Of a stretch of DNA of 50,126 nucleotides, positions 6,244 through 47,616 are shown one piece after another. The number at the start of each line of letters is the position of its first letter. Position 1 is the first letter of the stretch. Below the pieces are notes generated by a model. It was not told the DNA's origin. It searched no databases and saw nothing but the letters and a program-made list of their open reading frames with translations. Source of the DNA: Escherichia phage AugustePiccard. Made by a program: the position numbers and the translations under genes. The stretch lies in the sequence record MZ501051. One strand, 5' to 3'.

Positions 6244-7533
6244 ATGAACTTTTTAGATTTAGTCAGAAAGCAATACGATAGCGGAAAGGTTAGTCTTTCA
6301 GGAGTAAAGGTTAGCACTGACTTCACAACCACTTCATTAATTCAAGCAGCAACGACAATAGCTAACCCAGTCACTCACACCCGCAAGGATGAAACTAAAT
6401 TTAAGTTTACCACTTACGGGCTGGCTGATGTTTCCGGCGGCTCCTATACTGGGCAGTCGCCAAATGGCGTGCAAATGAAAATTGAGTTCATGACTGACGC
6501 GCTTGTCTTTGAGTTCAAGACTATCGGCTCTATCGGTACGTACTCTGTATTTGTTGATGGAGAGCTAACCAATATTGATGCAATCTCAACTCCTAACGGT
6601 CAAGCCGTTACTTACGTAAGAACCGAAGCCTCAGATGGCGTAATTAAGAGAATGAGACACGTCGAGATTTATGGGGTGAACACTTCATTCGGCGGGTTGT
6701 TTACCGACGCTGCGGATACGGTAACCAGCGAAATCACCATCGATCCAAAACCTTTTATCTACCAGATGGGTGACAGTTACACGTACGGCACTGGCGCAGG
6801 CTACGTAACTCAGGCATACGGCTCATCCCCAGCGATTAACGATTTCTACGTGTTCAGAAATGCGCTAGGCATGGACGGCATCGCGGAAGGTATCGGTGGT
6901 AGCGGATGGAACAGCACGGGCGGGCAAGTTCCGGCCTCAAGGTTGCAAAACAGACTGCTTAAGATGAATCGCAAGCCAGATGTTGTTAGTTTCGCTCTCG
7001 CATACAATGACGCTGCGGCTATTAACACTGGAACTAACGCAAGCAAACTAGTTACCTCGATGGGTGACGCGCTAAAGGTTGTCCGAGATGCAATGCCTGG
7101 CGTTCCTGTTATTCATGTTAGCTGTGCCACGCCAAAAGGAATCACCACGCAAATTCAGAGAGTCATAGACCTTACTCATGATTTTTGCGCAAGAAATGAC
7201 ATTCCCGTGATTGGGATTAGTAACTACGTGACTGCGGCGAACAGCATTTCATACACTGGAACGGATAACGTCCACCCAAACCCTCTGGGGCACGAATTCC
7301 GCGGTTTAGCTATGGCAAGGGAGTCATTAATGGCGGCGCTGGAAGGTCGTAGCCTGGTGCCAGAAATCAAACCCAGCGGTTTCACTGTAACTTACATTGA
7401 GCGACTCCGCTTCGCGGTTGATGTTAAGCGTGAGGTTGTTCAAGCTAAAACCGCAGATGAGGCATACTGGATGGTTAAATCTCGGGAGTACAGCAATCCA
7501 GACTTGAGAATCGAAATCATTTCTGTAGCATAA
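6244..7533 (+). CDS. SGNH/GDSL-family hydrolase (esterase) domain protein
   Basis: GDS block [11 protein letters not shown] and catalytic DxxH block [12 protein letters not shown] in the C-terminal half; flanked by terminators inside the head module. Confidence 0.6.
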
Positions 7534-7615: not shown

Positions 7616-9049
7616 ATGGCTAGCGAATTAAGAGCAGTAACCGCTGGGACTGCCCACGCCCTAAAGCAAAAAATCATGGAATACATTGCTGATGGTTGGC
7701 AGCCTTATGGAAGAATCCTTAACGCTGGAGCGACTAGCGTTGGTATCATCATGGCGAAAGGTACTACAGCAAGCATTAATGATGTTGATGTTATTACCGC
7801 AGATTCAAGGGCTTCTTTAGTTTCTAAGATTAACTCATCCATCGAAAATGGGTTTGAGATGTTCGGAGAGCAGGAAGTGAACGCAAGTAGATTTATCGCC
7901 TTCATGACTAAGGGTTCTCAAGGTTCATCTGGTGGCGGTGGAGAACCTGGACCAATTGGGCCTAAGGGTGAGAAGGGTGACAAGGGCGACAAGGGAGATG
8001 TTGGTGAGCGCGGACCCGCTGGCCTAGCTGGTGCGGCTGGCGCTACTGGTCCATCTGGCCCTCAAGGTTTAACTGGCCCCGCCGGCGCTAAAGGTGATAC
8101 TGGTGAGCAGGGACCAATGGGTCCAACTGGCGCTACTGGACCTAAAGGTGATACTGGCGAAACTGGTCCCGCCGGACCGCAGGGCCCAAGAGGATTGCAA
8201 GGTGAGCAGGGGGTTCCGGGCGAGGTTGGTCCTGCTGGATTGACATTCCAGGGCGCATGGGATTCTGCTGCGACATATGTGAAGGATGACACTGTAGTTT
8301 ATGATGGGTCTACTTGGTTTGCTCCAGATGCTGTAGCTGCTGGATTAGTCCCTGGAGTTGCTACTGAGTGGATTCTTTTAGCTGCGCAAGGCGCAAGGGG
8401 CGAGGATGGTCCGCAGGGTCCGGTTGGCCCTCAGGGTTTACAGGGTGCCACTGGCCCAGCGGGTCCTACTGGTGCTACTGGTGCTACAGGCCCGCAAGGC
8501 CCTAGAGGTATACAAGGTCAAACTGGCCCGGCAGGCCCAGCAGGTCCTCAGGGTGAGGCTGGTCCTCAGGGTATTCAGGGTCCGCAGGGTGTCGCTGGGC
8601 CTCAGGGATTAACTGGTCCTCAGGGTCCAAAAGGTGATAAAGGCGATGCTCCTTACACATTATTTAACTCGCAGAACGTTACATCAACATACATTGAAAT
8701 CCCTATTCCGCAAGTAACCAACACTGTACTTAGGGTTAGGCTTTCAGGTGCCAACTTTGAATATAGCGTTTTAAGCAAAGGCGGCGCCAATAGATATGTT
8801 GACTTTTACACATTCATCCCGTCATTAACTAGCTCAACGGGTAACATCTATACCGGAGGAACTACCTTGACACCAACTGGTAGCCTCTTTTTGGGTAACT
8901 CCCCCGTGGCTCTTGGATTGAGGGAGTTGACAATAACACTCAAGGAATGGGGCGACAGAACGCTAACTACAATAAAGGCGATACATCACGGCAGATCAGG
9001 TGACACAACAAGACCTTTGCAGATAACTATGTTTAGTAATAAGTATTAA
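7616..9049 (+). CDS. collagen-like (Gly-X-Y repeat) structural protein
   Basis: Two long Gly-X-Y tracts ([23 protein letters not shown]... and [20 protein letters not shown]...) between globular N- and C-terminal domains. Confidence 0.75.
7933..8643 (+). repeat. Gly-X-Y coding repeats (GGN-NNN-NNN periodicity)
   Basis: Repetitive GGT/GGC-CCN triplets inside the collagen-like gene. Confidence 0.7.
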
Positions 9050-32012: not shown

Positions 32013-32935
32013 TAGTTTAGTAGTTCGCTTGCCTTATAGATTCTCTTTCTTATTCCTGACTTGAAAAAATTATCATCATTTGGCATTACCACATCAATAT
32101 TGCGATCGTCAGCAACGGCGAGTAAATCAAGATCGTGGCGAGTACAAGCGATGCGTAACTTGTATTTTCTAAGCGCGTAAGCAACCATTTCCATGTTGTA
32201 GATGGAGTAGCAAACAAGCACGCAGCGGTTGCCAGTAGCAATGTGAACACGATAGCCGTCAATGAGATTATCGACCAGATAAGCGTAATCATCATCCTTA
32301 AAGGAACCAATAACAGAAACAGATTGGCGAGTATAATCTTTTGCAGCATAACTAACACCTCCATATTCATTGATAAACATTACATTACACATTTCTTCTG
32401 ATATGCCGTCACTATAAGCCATAAAGCACGGCACTGCGTGTATTAGTTCGCCTGATTTTGTTCTGCCAACATCAAAGCCAAACTCGCTATAGATTCCCTC
32501 GTATGTACTGAGCGGAGTTGATTCTACTCTTTCAGTCCTTTCCATTATCTCTAAGCATCTTTCGTGGTCAATCTGAGCGCCCATTTTGTAGATCTGGGTT
32601 CTTGATGCTTGCTTGTTTGCTTTAACTATAACCTCAATTGGTGTTAAGTTCAGCCAGTCACCAAGCAAATTTACTGAATCGGCGAAGGACGATCCAGTGC
32701 ACTTCATGACCCATCCTATACCGGAGTCACTCCCGCATTTCGAACAAACTGCCGCGCCATTTCCTTTTTCACTGCCTATTTCGTCGGTAAATCTGAATCT
32801 GTCAGTGCCAAAGCAGTATGGGCATGGTCCGTGCTTCTTACTTAGGTGTCTATCATTCCAACCAAGTTCCTTTGCATAAAATGATTTCCACAATCCGGCC
32901 ATCTTAGGTATAACTTCATTCTTATCGTAATTCAT
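32012..32935 (-). CDS. DNA primase (zinc-ribbon type, putative)
   Basis: N-terminal zinc-ribbon HGPCPYCFGTDRFRF...CSKCG; position beside helicase and HNH. Confidence 0.5.
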   Translation of the reverse strand: MNYDKNEVIPKMAGLWKSFYAKELGWNDRHLSKKHGPCPYCFGTDRFRFTDEIGSEKGNGAAVCSKCGSDSGIGWVMKCTGSSFADSVNLLGDWLNLTPIEVIVKANKQASRTQIYKMGAQIDHERCLEIMERTERVESTPLSTYEGIYSEFGFDVGRTKSGELIHAVPCFMAYSDGISEEMCNVMFINEYGGVSYAAKDYTRQSVSVIGSFKDDDYAYLVDNLIDGYRVHIATGNRCVLVCYSIYNMEMVAYALRKYKLRIACTRHDLDLLAVADDRNIDVVMPNDDNFFKSGIRKRIYKASELLN

Positions 32936-33411
32936 TTGCTTAACCCGTGATTTTCGTGAAAGTTGTATTTTCTCTCTGCTTCAATTCTTACTTTATACGC
33001 CTGCTCTGGAGTATCGAAGTTCCCAAGGTGTAACTGCTTACCGTCAACCTTGATGTGAGCCTTAAATTTTCCGTGATTTAGCTTTGCCACTCCACAATAA
33101 CCAGTTGTTGATAAAACGCTAAGCCTGCAATTTCTTGAGTTACCTTGATTTGTTGTTACTCTTAGGTTTTCTATTCTGTTATCTAATTTGTTATGGTTTA
33201 TATGATCAATGTAGTCGCCATTTTGAAGTTCTCCATTAAACATCTCCCACACAACTCTATGTACGTAAGTCCTAAAGCCATTAACAGACACTTTGTAATA
33301 GCCAGATGTAGATAGTGAGTTGCACTCATCGCCAACCTTAACACGTCTTGCAGTGCTAATCTTCCAATGCAATTTGCCATCTACATAGTAAAAATAATCA
33401 TGCCAGTTCAT
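32932..33411 (-). CDS. HNH homing endonuclease with AP2-like domain (copy 2)
   Basis: Motif IDHINHNKLDNRIENLR; N-terminus MNWHDYFYY paralogous to copies 1 and 3; stop overlaps primase start (ATGA). Confidence 0.8.
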   Translation of the reverse strand: MNWHDYFYYVDGKLHWKISTARRVKVGDECNSLSTSGYYKVSVNGFRTYVHRVVWEMFNGELQNGDYIDHINHNKLDNRIENLRVTTNQGNSRNCRLSVLSTTGYCGVAKLNHGKFKAHIKVDGKQLHLGNFDTPEQAYKVRIEAERKYNFHENHGLSK

Positions 33412-33462: not shown

Positions 33463-33936
33463 TTAATCTTTAGCTTTTCGTGCTGCTTCGTTAGCTGCCT
33501 TAATCTTGCGCCACGATCGACACTCTGGCTTGGTGGCCAGTTCAGCCTCAGTTACCACACGCAGCATGTGACGTTTTTTGCAGCGTAGAGTTAGTGGTTT
33601 TCCGTTACCGTCGAATTGCAGGTCTGGTCTACAGAATGTGGCGCGAAAACCTTCTCCGGTTCGTTTGTAGTAGTTGTGCGACAGTTGAGCGCCACGTGCA
33701 GAAATCATACCACGCTTAAACCACTCTTCTACAGCCTGCGGCGTTACCTTTAACTGCTTTGCGATATTCGCCTTTGTGCCGAAGAAATCAAGAATCATCT
33801 CTAACCTTGCGCGTAACCCAGCCCTTACCTCATCTTTCAAAACGTAGTAACCTGAAGGTCGCTTTCGCTGCTTTTTATCTTCAGTGCGGATGGTTCCGTT
33901 ATTGCCGTTAATGGTTCGCTTGTCAATTGTACTCAT
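33463..33936 (-). CDS. HTH DNA-binding protein (putative transcriptional regulator)
   Basis: Helix-turn-helix-like segment TKANIAKQLKVTPQAVEEWFKRGMIS; basic protein; first gene of a leftward block. Confidence 0.5.
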   Translation of the reverse strand: MSTIDKRTINGNNGTIRTEDKKQRKRPSGYYVLKDEVRAGLRARLEMILDFFGTKANIAKQLKVTPQAVEEWFKRGMISARGAQLSHNYYKRTGEGFRATFCRPDLQFDGNGKPLTLRCKKRHMLRVVTEAELATKPECRSWRKIKAANEAARKAKD

Positions 33937-34037
33937 TTCATTACCTCGATAGCATTTTTTGTTAAAAGTCATTCTGATTTGATGGTAGTATTGTACTCAA
34001 TTAAACGCTACAAGACAATTTTTATAGGAATTTAGAT

Positions 34038-36032
34038 ATGTTGCCTATCGAGAAACTGGTTGCCAACTTTGATAAAGAAAGAATTAAACAGATTCAGAAA
34101 GACTATCAGTTTGGCGAGATAACCCCTTACGAGTTCCAGTGCGTCACATTTGATGCAATCGGAAAGGCCATTGGAAAGTACGAGGCACCATTTATCGCGG
34201 ACCTTTCCGTGTCTGCTGGTAAGACAATCATTCTGGCTATGATTGGTAAGCGCATGGAGCAGCTTGGGCTTCCTTATATGGTTCTCTCTCGCCAGTCAGA
34301 AATTATCAGTCAGAACTCAGAAGAGCTTCGTAATTTCGGTATCCGTAACAGCGTCTATTGCGCCGGCCTCAACGTTAAATCGGTTTACTACCCAACCATA
34401 GTTGCTAGCGAGGGTACGGCAGCTAACGGCTTGTTTAAGGGTCTTGGTGACTACGTTCCTGCTGTTATAGCTATTGATGAGTGTCATATGGTGGACCATA
34501 TGGATATCGTGGAAGCTGAAGAGAACGAAGAAACATTTGAGCAAATGAGCACAAAGAAAGGCGAGATGGTTTTCAAGGATGGTGTTAACACTGGATTGAT
34601 AGGCACAGGGCGAGCGCAGTACACACTAATTATCACTGAGATGAAACGTCGCTGCCGCGAGAAGTACGGTCGTGAGCTTCGTATATTCGGTCTAACTGGC
34701 AGCCCGTATCGTAACAACGATCATATCGTCGTTAGCAACCCAAACATCCGTGGATTTTGGCGCAAGACGGTTATTCAGGTTCCAACCAATTACCTGGTTG
34801 ATTTAGGTTTCGTTGTTCCCACAGTTTACGGTGAAGTTGGCGATCTGGGATATGACCTTGCGGAGTTTGCGCCGGATGGCAGTGATGGCGTGAAAGACTT
34901 TAGCAAGAAAGAAATGGAAGCGATGCAGGAAAAAATTCATCAAAACCAGTCCATGACTCAAAAGATTATGGGTTTTGTTGTAAAAATACTAGAGACTCGT
35001 AACGCCGCATTGGTAACGTGTGCTGGTAAACTTCACTGCGAAGAAGCTGCTGCAGCGCTACCAGATGGATACCCTTACGCCATCATCACAGACTCTACTG
35101 GTGAGAGGAAGCGCAGAGAGATTCTTGACGATTGCCAGACAGGGAAGTATAAAATAATATTCCAGATTGGTTGTCTAACTACGGGGGTGTCGGTTCCACC
35201 GTGGGATACAAGCGTTATACTTAGAAAGATCGGCAGCCTTACACTACTGATCCAGCTACTTGGTAGGGGTATGCGAATACTCAAGAAGAAACATAAAGAA
35301 CTTGGAATGGTTAAGGACGATCATTTGGTTCTTGATTTCGCTGGTGCGCTTGATGACATGGCGGAGCTTTACTTTGACCCAATTATTGAAGAGATTCAGG
35401 CTGAGAAGTTTAAATCATCAAGAAAAGGTGGCGATGAGGTTCGCCAGTGTCCGCAATGTGGTTATGAGAACTCTCCGTTCGCTCGCAGGTGTGGTAACAA
35501 GATTGATGGAAAGCGTTGTGAGCACTTTTTCAGCTTTACGGTTTGTGAAGATATTACTGACCCGCAAACAAAGGCTGTTATAAAGAAAGGCTGCGGTACT
35601 CGCAATGACATAGCAGCAAAGGTTTGCAGGGAATGCGGAGAGATGCTTAAAGACCCAAATGCTAACCTGACTGGCAAGATGTATCGTCGTGGTGATTACC
35701 TTCGTGTTTATGATTTTCAAGTTGGGTTAAGTAAGAATCAGACAGGCATTGTAGTTAAGTACAACATCATGGCGCATAACGGAGAGAGGTTTAATGCTTG
35801 GGAGTTCTTTAATCCAGAATCAGACCATAGAGTTTGCAGTGTGCTTTGGAAGAACTTCTGCCTTGCTCATATTGAGAATCGAACTGAGGCCGCGCGAATT
35901 GGAAGACTGAAGAATGCCAGAATGATTATGACTAACTTGGATAAGTTCCGTGCGCCAGTTCAGGTTACACACCGAAGGAATGGCAAAGGAAAGGACGTGA
36001 TCGCTTTTAAGAATTTTGGAGAATTGCTATGA
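34038..36032 (+). CDS. SF2 helicase (DEAD/DEAH-box) with C-terminal zinc-ribbon
   Basis: Walker A SVSAGKT, Walker B/DECH AIDECHMV, and Cys clusters CPQCG...C...C / CRECG. Confidence 0.8.
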   Translation: MLPIEKLVANFDKERIKQIQKDYQFGEITPYEFQCVTFDAIGKAIGKYEAPFIADLSVSAGKTIILAMIGKRMEQLGLPYMVLSRQSEIISQNSEELRNFGIRNSVYCAGLNVKSVYYPTIVASEGTAANGLFKGLGDYVPAVIAIDECHMVDHMDIVEAEENEETFEQMSTKKGEMVFKDGVNTGLIGTGRAQYTLIITEMKRRCREKYGRELRIFGLTGSPYRNNDHIVVSNPNIRGFWRKTVIQVPTNYLVDLGFVVPTVYGEVGDLGYDLAEFAPDGSDGVKDFSKKEMEAMQEKIHQNQSMTQKIMGFVVKILETRNAALVTCAGKLHCEEAAAALPDGYPYAIITDSTGERKRREILDDCQTGKYKIIFQIGCLTTGVSVPPWDTSVILRKIGSLTLLIQLLGRGMRILKKKHKELGMVKDDHLVLDFAGALDDMAELYFDPIIEEIQAEKFKSSRKGGDEVRQCPQCGYENSPFARRCGNKIDGKRCEHFFSFTVCEDITDPQTKAVIKKGCGTRNDIAAKVCRECGEMLKDPNANLTGKMYRRGDYLRVYDFQVGLSKNQTGIVVKYNIMAHNGERFNAWEFFNPESDHRVCSVLWKNFCLAHIENRTEAARIGRLKNARMIMTNLDKFRAPVQVTHRRNGKGKDVIAFKNFGELL

Positions 36033-36448
36033 ACATAACAGATAAAGAAGATTACATTGAGTTTTACCCGGGCCCGGTTAAGTATTGCCCTAAAGAGGAT
36101 GACGAGCAAATCTTTTGCTCTGATTGGGTTAAGTATCATTACCCTCAGATTGTTTACTGGCACACGGTTAATGAATCGATGAAGACCATTGGACAGGCAA
36201 GAAAAGACCAGGCCAAAGGTTTGCTTAAGGGGGTTTCGGACTGCTTATTCCTGATACCTGAATCACTTCGTGGTAAATACCCTTTTGGAGCCATAGAGCT
36301 AAAAAGGGCCGGGAAGACGCAGGCGAGTCCAGTCAGCGACGAACAGAAGTCCTTCCTTAAGAGCGTCAGAGAATCGGGCGGCTTCGGGGCTGTAGCTTAC
36401 GGACGTGAGGGTTTTCTTGCGGCATTCAAAGAAATGATTTCAAAATAG
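36029..36448 (+). CDS. VRR-NUC domain nuclease
   Basis: Motif DCLFLIPE...GAIELKRAGK (D..E.K core); overlaps helicase stop (ATGA). Confidence 0.55.
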   Translation: MNITDKEDYIEFYPGPVKYCPKEDDEQIFCSDWVKYHYPQIVYWHTVNESMKTIGQARKDQAKGLLKGVSDCLFLIPESLRGKYPFGAIELKRAGKTQASPVSDEQKSFLKSVRESGGFGAVAYGREGFLAAFKEMISK

Positions 36449-36526: not shown

Positions 36527-36817
36527 ATGGCTACTATCTATACTGGTAAATTCTACGAATCACGCAAAACTGGTTATGAGTATGAATTAGTAATAACCCC
36601 AGAAGGTTATGTACTTGATGATGGTGAAGGGTACGCATTCGAAGTTAGCCCGACTTACAAAGATGATTTAGAAACTGTTAAAAACGCATTTGGCGAAAAA
36701 TTTGATGTTATTGATGATGGTGATGGCTACGCATTCGAAGTTAGCCCAACCTACAAAGATGATTTAGAAACTGTTAAAAACGCATTTGGCGAAAAAATTG
36801 ATGAGGTATCAGAGTAA
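36527..36817 (+). CDS. hypothetical small acidic protein with internal 32-aa tandem duplication
   Basis: Box promoter and leader; DDG(E/D)GYAFEVSPTYKDDLETVKNAFGEK occurs twice. Confidence 0.6.
   Translation: MATIYTGKFYESRKTGYEYELVITPEGYVLDDGEGYAFEVSPTYKDDLETVKNAFGEKFDVIDDGDGYAFEVSPTYKDDLETVKNAFGEKIDEVSE
36618..36809 (+). repeat. 96-bp tandem duplication (2 copies) inside ORF 36527..36817
   Basis: Two near-identical units starting gatgatggtga(a/t)gg(g/c)tacgcattcgaagttagccc... Confidence 0.75.
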
Positions 36818-37422: not shown

Positions 37423-37667
37423 TAGTTGAAACCGGTCGCGCCGCAGTTTGGGCGCACTGTGGAGAGGCTGGTTTGCAAGATGACATTAAGCAGATATCCC
37501 GCTTCTTTGACATAAAAGATATCAGTGTCGTGTTCAATGGTAAATTCTCTTACATGGATGAGCGCCCAAGAAAATACGTAAGAGTTAAGCCAGGTGTCAG
37601 GATTGATGTTAATGAGTTCCTTAAATCTGAGGGATTCAAGTTTAAGATAACGAAGCCTAAGGATTGA
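37419..37667 (+). CDS. hypothetical protein
   Basis: 82 aa, translationally coupled. Confidence 0.45.
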   Translation: MIVETGRAAVWAHCGEAGLQDDIKQISRFFDIKDISVVFNGKFSYMDERPRKYVRVKPGVRIDVNEFLKSEGFKFKITKPKD

Positions 37668-37669
37668 GT

Positions 37670-37921
37670 ATGTTGGGTTTAGATTTCCAGCCAGAGCATT
37701 ACGATTTAGTGCACGGGAAAAGTGGTGCAAAGTTTAGGTCGATACCTATCTCTGACTGGTTCCCTCCTGATTATGTGGATGTGAACGCAAAAACTAAAGG
37801 CGGGAAGTGGGTGCAGATTTACTACTCCCCAGCATGCGGAAACCTTTGCATGACTGACCTTGACAAAAAATTAGCAATTAGTGCGGAAGTGATCGACTAC
37901 TGGTTGAAAGAAGTTGAATGA
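37670..37921 (+). CDS. hypothetical protein
   Basis: ATG 37670 with RBS AAGGA. Confidence 0.45.
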   Translation: MLGLDFQPEHYDLVHGKSGAKFRSIPISDWFPPDYVDVNAKTKGGKWVQIYYSPACGNLCMTDLDKKLAISAEVIDYWLKEVE

Positions 37922-38004
37922 CTAGCCTAATACTAGTAGCATCGTTACCACTGTTTAGCTTTACTATCTTATACTTTATCGTAATGAATTAAGGAACTTA
38001 TATA

Positions 38005-39135
38005 ATGGCAACTGCAAAAATCACCAACGAACAATTGCGCGAAGAGCTAGCAAATGGCATGACCAACAAGGCAATCGCAGAGAAGTACGGAATGAACATT
38101 CGCAACGTTGAATTGCGTCGCAGTAAATTAGCGAAGAGTGGAGAATTGCACGGAAACCCGGGAATCAAGAAGTTAGTTCCTGACGGCTATTTGGTCAAAG
38201 GGACGTCAACGATGATTGACGCTGAGGGCAACGAAAAGATTCGCTGGGTTAAGACCTCTGTAGATAATGAGCGCCTTGAGGTTTTGATGGAACAGGCTCG
38301 AGAGGCATTCTGCTCTGAGTTGCCAAAGGCAGATTCGGTCACCCACTCAGGCAATGAGGTCAACTCTGAATTAATGACTCTTTACCCTATTTTCGATATC
38401 CATATCGGCATGATGGCTCATCGACATGAGTCTGGTGAAAATTATGACACCAATACCGCAGAGAAATTAATGGAATCATATTTCGATCATGCAATTTCTG
38501 TATCGCCATCCTCAGAGAAAGCTGTGATTTTAGTTGGCGGCGACTTCCTTCACTCTGACGGATTGGAAGCTGTAACCCCAGCAAGCGGACACTGCCTTGA
38601 TCAGGATAGTAGGTATGCTAAGTTAGTTTATGTTGCGATTCGCTCAATTCGTGGTGCCGTAGAGAAGATGCTTAAGAAGCATAAGAATGTCGAGATTCAG
38701 ATTATAGAGGGAAATCATGACCAGAGTGGTATGATTTGGCTCCGTGCGGCAATGGCTGCATTTTATGAAAACGAGAGTCGCGTCTTTGTTGATACCAGTC
38801 CGGCAATCATGCACAAAACTAGATTTGGCTCAACATTACTTGGTTACACACACGGCCACACAATGAAGAAGGCAGAAGGCAGGCTTGCAGCTATGGCAAC
38901 TGATTACAGGAAAGATTTTGGTGAGTGTGAATTTGTTTATTGCCATTCCGGGCATTTTCACCACGCAACTGTTACAGAGTGCACACTTGGGATTGATGAG
39001 GTTCACCCAGCCCTGGCTAGCAAGGATGCATATGCCGCTCGCGGAGGGTGGCGATCATATCGCCAAGCGGCTGCAATTGTTTACCACAAGAATTTTGGCG
39101 AGGTTGGTCGACACATTTATCGCCCCGGTATGTAA
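38005..39135 (+). CDS. metallophosphoesterase (calcineurin-like) with N-terminal HTH domain
   Basis: N-terminal HTH-like segment (MTNKAIAEKYGMNIRNVELRRSKL); phosphoesterase motifs DIHIG, GGDFLHSD, GNHD, THGH, GHFHH. Confidence 0.6.
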   Translation: MATAKITNEQLREELANGMTNKAIAEKYGMNIRNVELRRSKLAKSGELHGNPGIKKLVPDGYLVKGTSTMIDAEGNEKIRWVKTSVDNERLEVLMEQAREAFCSELPKADSVTHSGNEVNSELMTLYPIFDIHIGMMAHRHESGENYDTNTAEKLMESYFDHAISVSPSSEKAVILVGGDFLHSDGLEAVTPASGHCLDQDSRYAKLVYVAIRSIRGAVEKMLKKHKNVEIQIIEGNHDQSGMIWLRAAMAAFYENESRVFVDTSPAIMHKTRFGSTLLGYTHGHTMKKAEGRLAAMATDYRKDFGECEFVYCHSGHFHHATVTECTLGIDEVHPALASKDAYAARGGWRSYRQAAAIVYHKNFGEVGRHIYRPGM

Positions 39136-39179
39136 ATAGCACCTTTTGTTAAAACAGTAGCCGCGAAAGCGGCTATTAT
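39133..39179 (+). promoter_or_regulatory. box promoter upstream of HNH copy 3
   Basis: AAATAGCACCTTTTGTTAAA, 22 nt (contains hairpin GCCGCGAAAGCGGC), TATTAT. Confidence 0.55.
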
Positions 39180-39207
39180 TGTTTTATACAAACGATAGGA
39201 GATTGAA

Positions 39208-39693
39208 ATGAATTGGCATGATATTTTTGAATACAACGATGGCATTCTTTATCATAAAGTTAAGTTATGTATAAGAAATGATGTTAACGTTGGTGATATT
39301 GCTGGGGGGGGCGTTAGGCAAAACGGCTATCACTACGTGAATTACAAAAATAAGTTTTACAAAAGGTCAAGGGTTGTATGGGAGATGTTTAATGGAGATA
39401 TACCTGAGGGATTTGTCATTGATCACGTCAACCATGACGCGACAGATGACAGGATAGAAAACCTAGAGTGCAAGGAGCGCAGGGATAACATGGTTAATGT
39501 AAAGCTAAGGATTGATAGCTCCTCTGGTGTAACTGGTGTAGCAAGAAAGAGCGGTAATAAGTGGAGGGCATACATAACAATCATGGGTAAGCAGAAGTCC
39601 AAGAGCTTTAACACGTTTGAGGATGCTTGCGCACAGAGGATTGAATGGTCGGTAACTCATGATTTTCACCCAAATCACGGTGGAAAATACTAA
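39208..39693 (+). CDS. HNH homing endonuclease with AP2-like domain (copy 3)
   Basis: Motif IDHVNHDATDDRIENLE; N-terminus MNWHDIFEY; own box promoter. Confidence 0.75.
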   Translation: MNWHDIFEYNDGILYHKVKLCIRNDVNVGDIAGGGVRQNGYHYVNYKNKFYKRSRVVWEMFNGDIPEGFVIDHVNHDATDDRIENLECKERRDNMVNVKLRIDSSSGVTGVARKSGNKWRAYITIMGKQKSKSFNTFEDACAQRIEWSVTHDFHPNHGGKY

Positions 39694-39737
39694 ATAGCAC
39701 TTTTTGCCTAACCCATGCCGTAGAAATGCGGCATAAT
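39693..39737 (+). promoter_or_regulatory. box promoter (variant)
   Basis: AAATAGCACTTTTTGCCTAA, CATAAT, leader CACATCGAAACGAG. Confidence 0.5.
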
Positions 39738-39778
39738 CACCACATCGAAACGAGATTAACTAAACGAGGAAACGCAAG

Positions 39779-39955
39779 ATGACTAAAATGATTTATTGCA
39801 CCAAGAACAACTCCAAGACTCTGCCATTTACAGTCAACAATCCGTATAACGCAGAGTACCAGGGTGATGGATATTACAAGATTTATGGCGACGATATGAC
39901 GCACATCTTAGCACCGATTGATGGTTCGCTGGTTGAATTTATTATCGCAGACTAG
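39779..39955 (+). CDS. hypothetical small protein (58 aa)
   Basis: Box promoter and conserved leader upstream; below the ORF-track cutoff. Confidence 0.4.
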   Translation: MTKMIYCTKNNSKTLPFTVNNPYNAEYQGDGYYKIYGDDMTHILAPIDGSLVEFIIAD

Positions 39956-40008: not shown

Positions 40009-40085
40009 TGCTTCTTTTCCGAGAGGCGCTAATGTATGATTATTTTACTAACTTAAACATTGACAAATAGATAAAGGTGGGTCAC

Positions 40086-40301
40086 ATGAGGGAAGTAATT
40101 AACGCCGCTACGGCATCAACTGGCGGTGCCGCAGTAACTGGCGCAGCAACTGGTCAGATGACCATAGCAATAATCAGCCTTATCGCTTTAATTATTTTTG
40201 GTGCCTGGGGCGCTTACTGGAAGTTCAAAGATAGCCAGGCGATTCGCAGGGCGCTTGAGTCGGGAGACTTAAAAACAGCAATCAAGATAAGGAGCAAGTA
40301 A
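40086..40301 (+). CDS. holin (single transmembrane domain, putative)
   Basis: One hydrophobic helix (MTIAIISLIALIIFGAWGAYW) and charged C-terminus; immediately upstream of the endolysin. Confidence 0.6.
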   Translation: MREVINAATASTGGAAVTGAATGQMTIAIISLIALIIFGAWGAYWKFKDSQAIRRALESGDLKTAIKIRSK

Positions 40302-40787
40302 ATGAAGCAGAAGCTGGTAGTTGGTGCCGCGACCGCTGCAGCGATATACATCGCAGCGCCTCTTATTGAGCTTGTGGAGGGTGTCGAATACAATCCATAC
40401 ATGGATATTGCTGGAATCCCTACAGTCTGTTCTGGCATTACTGGTCCTGACGTTGTTTGGGGTAAAAAATACAGCAAGAGGGAATGCCGAAACCTGCTTG
40501 AGAAACACATTCAGATTCATGGAAAGCATGTTCATGATGCAGTTACCTACCCAATTTCACCGCAGACAAGGGCAGCGTTAATCAGCTTTAGCTACAACGT
40601 TGGTGGTCATGCCATGAAGAACTCAACGGCAATTCGCCTTATCAACCAGGGTAAGATTGAGCAGGGTTGTAAGGCTCTCGGGATGTGGACGAAGGCCACC
40701 GTTAATGGCAAGAAGGTTGTCGTTAAGGGGTTAGTGAATCGCAGGAATGAGGAGATTAAGTTATGCTTAAGTGGATTGCAGCGTTAG
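40302..40787 (+). CDS. SAR endolysin (T4-lysozyme-like muramidase)
   Basis: N-terminal signal-anchor VVGAATAAAIYIAAPLI followed by catalytic E-x8-D-x5-T (EGVEYNPYMDIAGIPT). Confidence 0.75.
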   Translation: MKQKLVVGAATAAAIYIAAPLIELVEGVEYNPYMDIAGIPTVCSGITGPDVVWGKKYSKRECRNLLEKHIQIHGKHVHDAVTYPISPQTRAALISFSYNVGGHAMKNSTAIRLINQGKIEQGCKALGMWTKATVNGKKVVVKGLVNRRNEEIKLCLSGLQR

Positions 40788-41161
40788 TGATGTGCGCGGC
40801 TTTATCTGGATGTTCAGCAACAGATGCACTGACCGGATTGATTGGCAGTAAGCCAGAGATTAGTGCACAGGCTGGCGCCGAGAACAACAAGGTTGGGGTT
40901 GGGTTAACAAATAAGGTTGATTCCAGTAACTCCAGTGAAGCCACGGTTAAAGACTCTAAGGTTGGGTCACTAGATAGCTCGAGCGGTAAAAAGACTGCCG
41001 ACAACTCGATTAGGGCCTCTACAATCACCGCGGAAAGGATTGAGATTACCAATAATGACTCATTCAGCATTTATGAAATACTGGCATTGATTGGATTTCC
41101 TCTGCTCATTATTTTTAATGGCTGCTATGTGCTTTACAGGGCAAACAAAAAAGCCTCCTAA
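40763..41161 (+). CDS. unimolecular spanin (lipoprotein with C-terminal TMD)
   Basis: Lipobox LSGC at the N-terminus and a C-terminal hydrophobic helix (ILALIGFPLLIIF); overlaps the endolysin 3' end. Confidence 0.65.
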   Translation: MLKWIAALVMCAALSGCSATDALTGLIGSKPEISAQAGAENNKVGVGLTNKVDSSNSSEATVKDSKVGSLDSSSGKKTADNSIRASTITAERIEITNNDSFSIYEILALIGFPLLIIFNGCYVLYRANKKAS

Positions 41162-47001: not shown

Positions 47002-47616
47002 ATGGCTAAAATCATCATTCTTAATGGACCAGCTGGAGTGGGCAAAGACACTATCGGAAACGCGTTACACTATGATTACCGATGTATACAAACAAGCTTT
47101 AAGCGTCCAATGTTTGAAATTGCCGAGTCAATCCTGGGGGCCGGGGCGTTCAGTAAGTTCATCACGGCTTATGATGACCGAGATCAGAAAGAGATGCCTC
47201 AGAGCTTCCTTGGTGGCAAGACGTGCCGCGAGTTCATGATCTGGATTAGCGAGTCGGTAGTCAAGCCGCTATTTGGCAATCAGCAGTTCGGTAAGCTAAT
47301 GAGCGAACATATCAAGCTGTGTGACGAAGGATTAACGTTCGTTTGCACTGATGGCGGTTTCGCTGATGAAGTTATCCAGCTTGTTGAAGATGGTCACGAT
47401 GTTACGCTGGTGCGACTTTTTATGGAAGGCAAGACCTTCGCAGGCGATAGCCGTAATTACATCCGAATCAAGGAATCGCACTTCCCTGATTATAAAAAGT
47501 ATCAGGAGCATAGCGTTCGCCTGGTTAATGGTGACATTGGTGGCGGCGTATTGGCGGTGGCTGAGGCTTGCGGACTAACCTCAGATTACGAATGGGTAGA
47601 CGATATTCCCTGGTAA
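47002..47616 (+). CDS. P-loop nucleotide kinase (dNMP-kinase-like)
   Basis: N-terminal P-loop IIILNGPAGVGKDT, as in phage dNMP kinases; about 200 aa. Confidence 0.5.
   Translation: MAKIIILNGPAGVGKDTIGNALHYDYRCIQTSFKRPMFEIAESILGAGAFSKFITAYDDRDQKEMPQSFLGGKTCREFMIWISESVVKPLFGNQQFGKLMSEHIKLCDEGLTFVCTDGGFADEVIQLVEDGHDVTLVRLFMEGKTFAGDSRNYIRIKESHFPDYKKYQEHSVRLVNGDIGGGVLAVAEACGLTSDYEWVDDIPW

Follow-up and report, generated by a model that had tools for sequence, protein, structure and literature searches.

We analyzed a stretch of 50,126 nucleotides from Escherichia phage AugustePiccard (sequence record MZ501051; this whole stretch is called the window below) and focused on the gene at positions 38005-39135, which encodes a protein of 376 amino acids with an N-terminal helix-turn-helix (HTH) domain in front of a metallophosphoesterase core. 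With a confidence slightly better than even, we read the product as a stand-alone, HTH-tethered DNA phosphodiesterase, acting as an exonuclease, an endonuclease or both, which would serve in DNA breakdown or end processing. The reading draws on the open reading frame (ORF) and its orthologs, the intact catalytic motifs and the fold, an HTH that occurs family-wide, the absence of a partner gene, and the gene neighbourhoods in related phages. The gene and its start are as follows:

38005-39135, + strand: coding sequence of the HTH-phosphoesterase, 376 amino acids, ATG start (from the ORF list); ortholog of T1 gp16, Rtp61 and TLS gp66
37991-37995, + strand: Shine-Dalgarno-like AAGGA, 9 nucleotides before the ATG (read from the sequence)

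The window is an essentially complete genome of an Rtp-like coliphage of the Drexlerviridae; its best DNA matches are JulesPiccard/Bas03, SU57, BEK2/3 and Rtp (87-90%), and its gene order agrees with that of JulesPiccard. The ORF matched the PHROG 704 profile ('DNA repair exonuclease') at a level that excludes chance, with an E-value of 4.7e-152, amino acids 4-376 aligning to positions 2-388 of the 390 in the profile. Identity was 98% to the BEK2/3 and SU57 proteins, 71.5% to Rtp61 and 65% to T1 gp16, whose record bears the label 'exonuclease' with a note of HHpred 99% to SbcD; TLS gp66, labelled 'proof-reading exonuclease', lies at the equivalent genome position. By tblastn, homologs were found in 2,017 phage records, among them Drexlerviridae, Guernseyvirinae, Dhillonvirus, Eracentumvirus, N4-like Vibrio phages, roseophages and Campylobacter phages, and when representatives of clusters at 50% identity were searched exhaustively, 4,704 clusters matched at E <= 1e-3, of which 1,066 still did so at E <= 1e-30. 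A pangenome analysis classed the gene as persistent, with 508 of 522 Drexlerviridae carrying it (PMC13164509). The family is already catalogued: near-identical sequences are deposited and a function is assigned at annotation level only. Proteins 96-98% identical to that of the window appear as 'hypothetical protein', 'DNA repair exonuclease', 'DNA binding protein' or 'putative phosphatase', and the family labels in circulation include 'proof-reading exonuclease', 'phosphoesterase' and 'oxidoreductase'. These names derive from remote similarity alone. Full-text literature searches for experimental data on T1 gp16 and its homologs, for escape mutants and for phage HTH-phosphoesterases found none for the family; literature on PUA-Cal-HAD, ApeA and an escaper screen was set aside as having no relation to the gene.

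An earlier note on this DNA had read a full set of calcineurin-like motifs from the ORF, and this was borne out. All five motifs of the calcineurin type, DxH, GDxx(D/H), GNH(D/E), H and GHxH, are present in the canonical order:

38362-39132, + strand: binuclear metallophosphoesterase core, amino acids 120-376, ending with core strands and no capping domain
38395-38409, + strand: motif I, DIHIG, amino acids 131-135 (D131, H133)
38539-38553, + strand: motif II, GDFLH, amino acids 179-183 (D180; H183 nearly invariant)
38554-38619, + strand: signature loop after motif II, amino acids 184-205, TPASGHCLDQDSR; family consensus TPxSGHxLDxDxR
38710-38721, + strand: motif III, GNHD, amino acids 236-239
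38851-38859, + strand: motif IV, HGH, amino acids 283-285 (H283 invariant)
38950-38961, + strand: motif V, GHFH, amino acids 316-319 (H317, H319)

The AlphaFold2 model, built on 103 homologs of 27-98% identity (mean predicted local distance difference test score, pLDDT, of 79.8, with the core mostly above 90), has the alpha/beta sandwich fold of the calcineurin-like binuclear metallophosphoesterase superfamily. Across these homologs D131, H133, G179, D180, G236, N237, H238, D239, H283, G316, H317 and H319 are invariant, and D131, H133, G179, D180, N237, H238, H283, G316 and H319 are still invariant in 120 representatives of 31-58% identity. Conservation is highest in the core, and the most conserved segment of the protein is the loop after motif II (entropy 1.10 and 1.77 bits, compared to 1.32 and 2.08 for the whole core), in which T191, L198, D201 and R203 are invariant in the 103 homologs; judged from the alignments, this insertion loop is a signature of the family. 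The Pfam model Metallophos (PF00149) scored 14.4 bits on the window protein, with a cut-off of 21.5; the homologs P0256 (27.0 bits) and P0262 (25.1 bits) passed it, and 29 of the 120 representatives matched at E < 0.01. The intact motifs predict a catalytically competent binuclear metallophosphoesterase.

The N-terminal part of the protein contains two further elements:

38005-38154, + strand: three-helix HTH, amino acids 1-50 (helices 8-16, 21-28 and 32-44), with recognition helix IRNVELRRSKLAK; AlphaFold pLDDT 85-90
38200-38319, + strand: beta-hairpin (amino acids 67-81) and long helix (amino acids 85-103), family-specific; in the model, pLDDT only 52-72

The structure prediction that the earlier note had asked for gives an HTH bundle followed by the alpha/beta-sandwich core, and the HTH-like segment claimed there is supported both by this three-helix bundle and by HTH Pfam matches in homologs. 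Between the bundle and the hairpin-helix module runs a poorly ordered linker; G75 and W81 of the module are nearly invariant, and no database match to it was found. On the window protein itself the GerE Pfam match (amino acids 13-41) is sub-threshold, with 13.7 bits against 23.5, and the best PDB profile match of the N-terminus, again GerE, is marginal and non-significant (E 0.059). Among the 120 representatives, HTH_1 was matched by 25, HTH_8 by 21, HTH_50 by 13, Sigma70_r4_2 and HTH_30 by 10 each and HTH_23 by 9; the best E-values in homologs are 2.4e-8 (GerE) and 1.5e-9 (Sigma70_r4_2), with no HTH subfamily preferred. Precomputed HTH matches are on record even for a divergent marine clade, the residues ahead of motif I number 141 in the family median, and the HTH segment is basic, with an isoelectric point of 9.7 for the segment and 11.7 for the recognition helix. 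R33, V35, E36, R38 and A43 are invariant across the T1-like orthologs. The Pfam matches in homologs, those in the marine clade, the length before motif I and the basic charge together indicate that the HTH-phosphoesterase fusion is ancestral to the family, and the HTH assignment rests on more than the structure model alone. A few family members are HTH-less or carry extra winged-helix domains, and a scan of the longer members for added N-terminal domains returned just further HTH or winged-helix matches, or nothing. We conclude that the N-terminal segment is a predicted DNA-binding HTH of the simple tri-helical type, as in LuxR/GerE, sigma-70 region 4 or Fis.

The earlier note had also called the core Mre11/SbcD-type, a description that holds for the fold and the motifs of the nuclease domain and fails for the capping domain, the Rad50/SbcC gene and membership in the corresponding sequence models. 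Mre11 and SbcD share the nuclease-domain fold with its metallophosphoesterase motifs, and the histidine of motif II in GDLFH/GDLLH of Mre11 and in GDFLH of Nuclease MPE is that of H183 in the window protein. The core is most similar to the nuclease domains of Mre11/SbcD and PolD-DP1, and it probably works like that of Mre11/SbcD. Identity to Mre11/SbcD is about 13%, with just 188-200 residues aligning to chains of 319-386 amino acids. Searches of PDB chains, with the single protein and with the family profile, gave non-significant matches only, and there is thus no close template; the best marginal matches of the core were T. maritima Mre11 (family profile, E 0.2) and P. putida Nuclease MPE. 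No family-specific model was found in NCBIfam, and its SbcD-type models were unmatched, the best SbcD-related one (TIGR00024) scoring 12.3 bits against a cut-off of 115. The C-terminal capping domain of Mre11/SbcD is absent, the protein ending at amino acid 376 with strands E355-361 and E365-372 in the model, and so is the C-terminal region that binds Rad50/SbcC; unlike Mre11/SbcD, the window protein has the N-terminal HTH, the hairpin-helix module and the conserved loop after motif II. No SMC-like protein is encoded among the 17 window ORFs of at least 250 amino acids, and no Rad50/SbcC is annotated in JulesPiccard or in the examined regions of T1, Rtp and TLS. With neither a capping domain nor a Rad50/SbcC gene, the protein should not be filed as an SbcD/Mre11 ortholog.

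PdeM / P. putida Nuclease MPE (PDB 6nvo; TIGR04123) is the sole solved protein and NCBIfam model that was detected by sequence, at GDFLH and around GNHD. Its model gave the best NCBIfam match, and membership was rejected at a score of 19 bits against a cut-off of 150. TIGR04123 bears the title ligase-associated DNA damage response endonuclease, and going by the depositors' naming the protein is a small stand-alone metallo-nuclease that works without Rad50; its gene accompanies those for a helicase and a ligase. Among viral structures, the nearest are phage phosphoesterases of 370-500 amino acids, mostly unnamed or auto-labelled 'DNA polymerase II small subunit'. The annotation of JulesPiccard, a close relative, contains no DNA polymerase, which makes this label implausible for the window protein, and a role as a PolD DP1-like polymerase subunit was rejected on the same ground; at the N-terminus the model shows an HTH and a hairpin-helix, not an OB fold. 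A functional precedent is provided by A10ZJ24 Gp48 and Bxb1 gp47 of cluster A mycobacteriophages, early-expressed proteins with phosphodiesterase and DNase activity that degrade host DNA (PMC12287305). They are likewise phage-encoded stand-alone metallophosphoesterases of the replication region, and the precedent is functional only: homology was rejected, since hhalign gave a probability of 0.67% over 17 columns, at GNHD only, and these proteins belong to phrog_221, not 704. The Gp48-type protein has 255 amino acids with motif I at residue 10, and hence no HTH.

In the mechanism that we propose, a binuclear centre of the Mn2+/Mg2+ type would hydrolyse phosphodiester bonds in DNA in the manner of Mre11, and the basic N-terminal HTH would tether the phosphoesterase core to DNA, supplying the affinity that Mre11/SbcD otherwise obtains from Rad50/SbcC and from the capping domain. 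The enzyme may then degrade host DNA to nucleotides, to be re-phosphorylated by a phage deoxynucleoside monophosphate (dNMP) kinase, and/or trim DNA ends for recombination-dependent replication. Phage T4 offers a parallel to such a dual role: its gp46 and gp47, homologs of Rad50 and Mre11, serve both recombination and the degradation of host DNA to nucleotides that feed the phage dNMP kinase. The proposed analogy is one of function only, as gp47 needs the Rad50-like gp46, which has no equivalent here, and no sequence relationship to gp47 was detected with the tools used.

Gene neighbourhoods were compared in about 15 lineages, and two associations recur, one with genes for nucleic-acid and nucleotide processing and one with lysis genes. 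The first is seen in the following orders (PNK, polynucleotide kinase):

K1ind1: phosphoesterase, HAD/PNKP-type 3'-phosphatase, dNMP kinase
SU57: phosphoesterase, PNK, ATPase
phiEa100: exonuclease, endonuclease VII, phosphoesterase, PNK, dNMP-kinase homolog, ligase
BUCT_49532: PNK, one gene, phosphoesterase
Campylobacter PC5: ligase, phosphoesterase
N4-like contig: phosphoesterase between PolA and a primase-type gene

The KanT1 paper reports that, where Drexlerviridae have no SH3 gene, the genes found most often downstream are those for PNK and dNMP kinase (PMC13164509). The window itself encodes a dNMP kinase homolog and no PNK or ligase:

47002-47613, + strand: dNMP kinase homolog (phrog_139, E 1.3e-37; 43% identity by tblastn to the K1ind1 'ATP-binding protein')

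Its homolog adjoins the phosphoesterase gene in K1ind1 and phiEa100; in the window the two genes are unlinked, and the kinase is a possible pathway partner of the phosphoesterase.

The same neighbours bear on the strongest alternative, which we nevertheless consider unlikely, namely that the protein is an end-healing or repair phosphoesterase that removes 3'-phosphates, 2',3'-cyclic phosphates or other blocked ends on phage DNA or RNA. Such an enzyme would work with a PNKP-type phosphatase/kinase and a ligase against damage by host nucleases, in the way of the Lhr/PdeM/ligase cluster of the bacterial damage response or of Pnkp-type RNA repair. PNK and/or ligase genes do adjoin the phosphoesterase in several lineages, the best matches at the sequence level, weak as they are, are PdeM and Nuclease MPE, and the gene shares its region of the window with a helicase and a VRR-NUC nuclease. 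Against this, the third gene that recurs in the neighbourhood encodes a dNMP kinase, a better fit for nucleotide salvage than for repair. A ligase is missing from most T1-like phages, the one of the window included, and the TIGR04123 score falls far below its cut-off.

A phosphodiesterase for a second messenger or dinucleotide (cAMP, cyclic oligonucleotides, Ap4A), active in host takeover or counter-defence and using the HTH for autoregulation or protein contacts, is improbable. Both the best fold matches and motif II, with its GDxxH form, point to nucleases, the HTH is conserved family-wide, and the gene is near-universal in Drexlerviridae, unlike typical counter-defence genes; PADLOC gave no match, and nothing ties the family to a defence system.

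Also proposed in the earlier note was a regulatory function for the HTH, through a palindromic box that recurs in the window:

2709, 17837, 28100, 31944, 36441, 46462, 46739, 47613, 48035 and 48602, + strand: box AAATAGCACGAATTGCTAAA, with inverted arms TAGCA/TGCTA
24412, 25158, 26430, 43154, 43582 and 44846, - strand: box AAATAGCACGAATTGCTAAA
2170, 12748, 37219, 39132 and 39690: degenerate copies of the box

Boxes of the ATAGCACGAATTGCTAAA type are far more frequent in the window than expected (20 matches, expectation 1.6) and always intergenic, lying about 22 nucleotides upstream of a -10-like hexamer (TATAGT/TATAAT-like) and a CATCGAAACGA element, with a short hairpin between box and hexamer in several copies. 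The box corresponds to the 21-nucleotide direct repeat published for TLS, T1, Rtp and Rogue1, to which no function or binding factor was assigned there (PMC11447400). We regard as very unlikely the idea that the protein is bifunctional and also regulates transcription, by binding of its HTH to the ATAGCAC...TTGCTAAA boxes ahead of most T1-like transcription units. In its favour are the palindromic form of the box and its place relative to -10-like hexamers, with no binding factor known, the recognition helix, which is fairly conserved among T1-like orthologs (0.79), and weak matches of the N-terminus to PHROGs of phage transcription regulators. Neither the distribution of the box nor its position relative to the gene supports such a role, however: it was not found in loci of Jerseyvirus, N4-like Vibrio and Sulfitobacter phages (8-11 kb only) that carry the same protein family, nor upstream of the phosphoesterase gene itself; positions 34, 37 and 39 of the recognition helix vary freely among phages that share the box; and the genome has dedicated HTH regulators, such as that at 33463-33972 on the - strand.

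The second recurrent association, with lysis genes, corresponds in the window to the order of HNH gene and lysis cassette downstream that had been noted earlier and that our analysis confirmed. The phosphoesterase gene is the last of a rightward early-middle region whose first genes encode a helicase (34038-36032) and a VRR-NUC nuclease (36029-36448), and this terminal place, ahead of the (SH3)-holin-endolysin-spanin module, is conserved in Drexlerviridae and found in the window as well:

39156-39177, + strand: terminator-like hairpin and T-run just past the stop codon, ending the transcription unit
39208-39693: HNH endonuclease (phrog_99, E 5e-50)
39779-39955, + strand: ORF of 58 amino acids, T1 gp14 / Rtp62 family (phrog_4788)
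40077-40301: holin
40302-40787: endolysin
40763-41161: spanin

Ahead of the HNH gene, the hairpin is preceded by a degenerate ATAGCAC box (39136-39154) and followed by a TATTAT hexamer, and in T1 a rho-independent terminator is annotated at the matching place after gp16. Across the roughly 15 lineages sampled, holin or endolysin genes lie within a few genes of the phosphoesterase in six otherwise unrelated ones (loci L001, L002, L005, L007, L008, L011, L012 and L015):

Lineages with lysis-gene neighbours: Drexlerviridae, Dhillonvirus EP23, Sulfitobacter NYA-2014a, an Aerobium prophage, an SU10-like contig and Vibrio phage 95E33-2

In PEAT2 and BUCT_49532, the module that follows the phosphoesterase is the terminase, and the adjacency to lysis genes may merely reflect a place at the end of the DNA-metabolism module. 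Least probable of all is a lysis-associated function away from DNA. An enzyme that hydrolyses a nucleotide-linked envelope precursor in the manner of LpxH, for example, would account for the frequent holin/endolysin adjacency. Against this, the adjacency is explicable by that place at the end of the module, the HTH points to DNA, gene and lysis cassette are divided by a terminator both in T1 and here, and the model has no membrane or signal segment.

T1 gp16, Rtp61 and TLS gp66 share the HTH and phosphoesterase architecture, the position upstream of the lysis cassette and the terminator after the gene. Nothing essential differs in the window, apart from the HNH homing-endonuclease cassette between the phosphoesterase and the SH3-like gene and an allele of the BEK2/SU57 type rather than the Rtp type. 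The latter is an instance of mosaicism: the protein is 98% identical to those of BEK2/3 and SU57 and only 71.5% to Rtp61, yet the flanking DNA is about 87% identical to Rtp, which suggests allelic replacement among Rtp-like phages. Directly upstream of the phosphoesterase, in T1, Rtp and the window phage alike, there is always an ORF of the T1 gp17 family (here 85 amino acids, 37664-37921, + strand; phrog_4596), whose product could be a partner protein of the phosphoesterase. Among the records with homologs, MG065688 (Campylobacter phage A110b), MG065671, MG065638 and PP134917 (Pseudomonas phage PsgS01F) contain T1/Rtp-like coliphage sequence, with proteins 97-98% identical, and the PsgS01F record is equal in length to that of an E. 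coli phage; these Campylobacter- and Pseudomonas-labelled entries are probably host mis-assignments or contaminating coliphages.

Compared with Rtp and JulesPiccard, the window has gained the HNH gene at 39208-39693 by insertion. Both flanks of the gene (39136-39790 examined) bear their own box, hairpin and -10-like unit, and the spacer between rtp61 and rtp62 in Rtp (L002:6105-6220) is nearly identical to the downstream flank, so that the gene seems to have come as a cassette that duplicated, or brought along, its own regulatory unit. A paralogous HNH endonuclease of 159 amino acids (32932-33411, - strand), with the same MNWHD... N-terminus as the 39208 copy, lies between the primase and HTH regulator genes. 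The 58-amino-acid ORF at 39779-39955 is the positional counterpart of the stand-alone SH3-like (DUF7244) protein, newly described as belonging to the Drexlerviridae lysis module (PMC13164509). Elsewhere in the window, a 96-nucleotide tandem duplication at 36609-36800 (93% identical) doubles a domain of a phrog_6031 protein in the ORF at 36527-36817, which the PHROG profile accordingly matches in two stretches. Collagen-like Gly-X-Y repeats (8030-8626) occur in a 477-amino-acid ORF (7616-9049) located between the genes for the prohead protease and the major capsid protein; at that position JulesPiccard has a counterpart neither of this ORF nor of the 429-amino-acid one that precedes it (6244-7533).

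The earlier note had gone on to suggest a DNA-targeted nuclease or phosphatase, perhaps for degradation of host DNA. The first part of this interpretation is the one that we favour, narrowly, in the form of a DNA phosphodiesterase; the second, that the T1 gp16-type HTH-phosphoesterase is the nuclease that degrades the host chromosome in T1-like phages, independently of Rad50 and feeding a salvage route through 3'-phosphatase and dNMP kinase, we put forward as a tentative and less than probable proposal. A re-annotation of TLS and T1 in 2024 states that both phages break down the host genome and recycle its nucleotides, through early gene products that were not identified (PMC11447400). If the phosphoesterase is this nuclease, the HTH tether to DNA would let it dispense with a Rad50-like partner, and a knockout of the gene would abolish host-DNA breakdown and raise generalized transduction, as in the classical T1 mutants that were never mapped to an ORF.

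Few non-structural genes of T1-like phages are better conserved than this one, and homologs are present in about 2,000 sequenced phages of several families. If an Mre11-like core were shown to work alone, with an HTH replacing both Rad50 and the capping domain, the nuclease field would gain a useful comparison. T1-type phages that occur as contaminants or are used in therapy would have changed transduction behaviour where host-DNA degradation is altered. The finding will not surprise a specialist, yet the phosphoesterase, together with its 3'-phosphatase and dNMP kinase neighbours in related phages, is a concrete candidate for host-genome degradation by T1-like phages.

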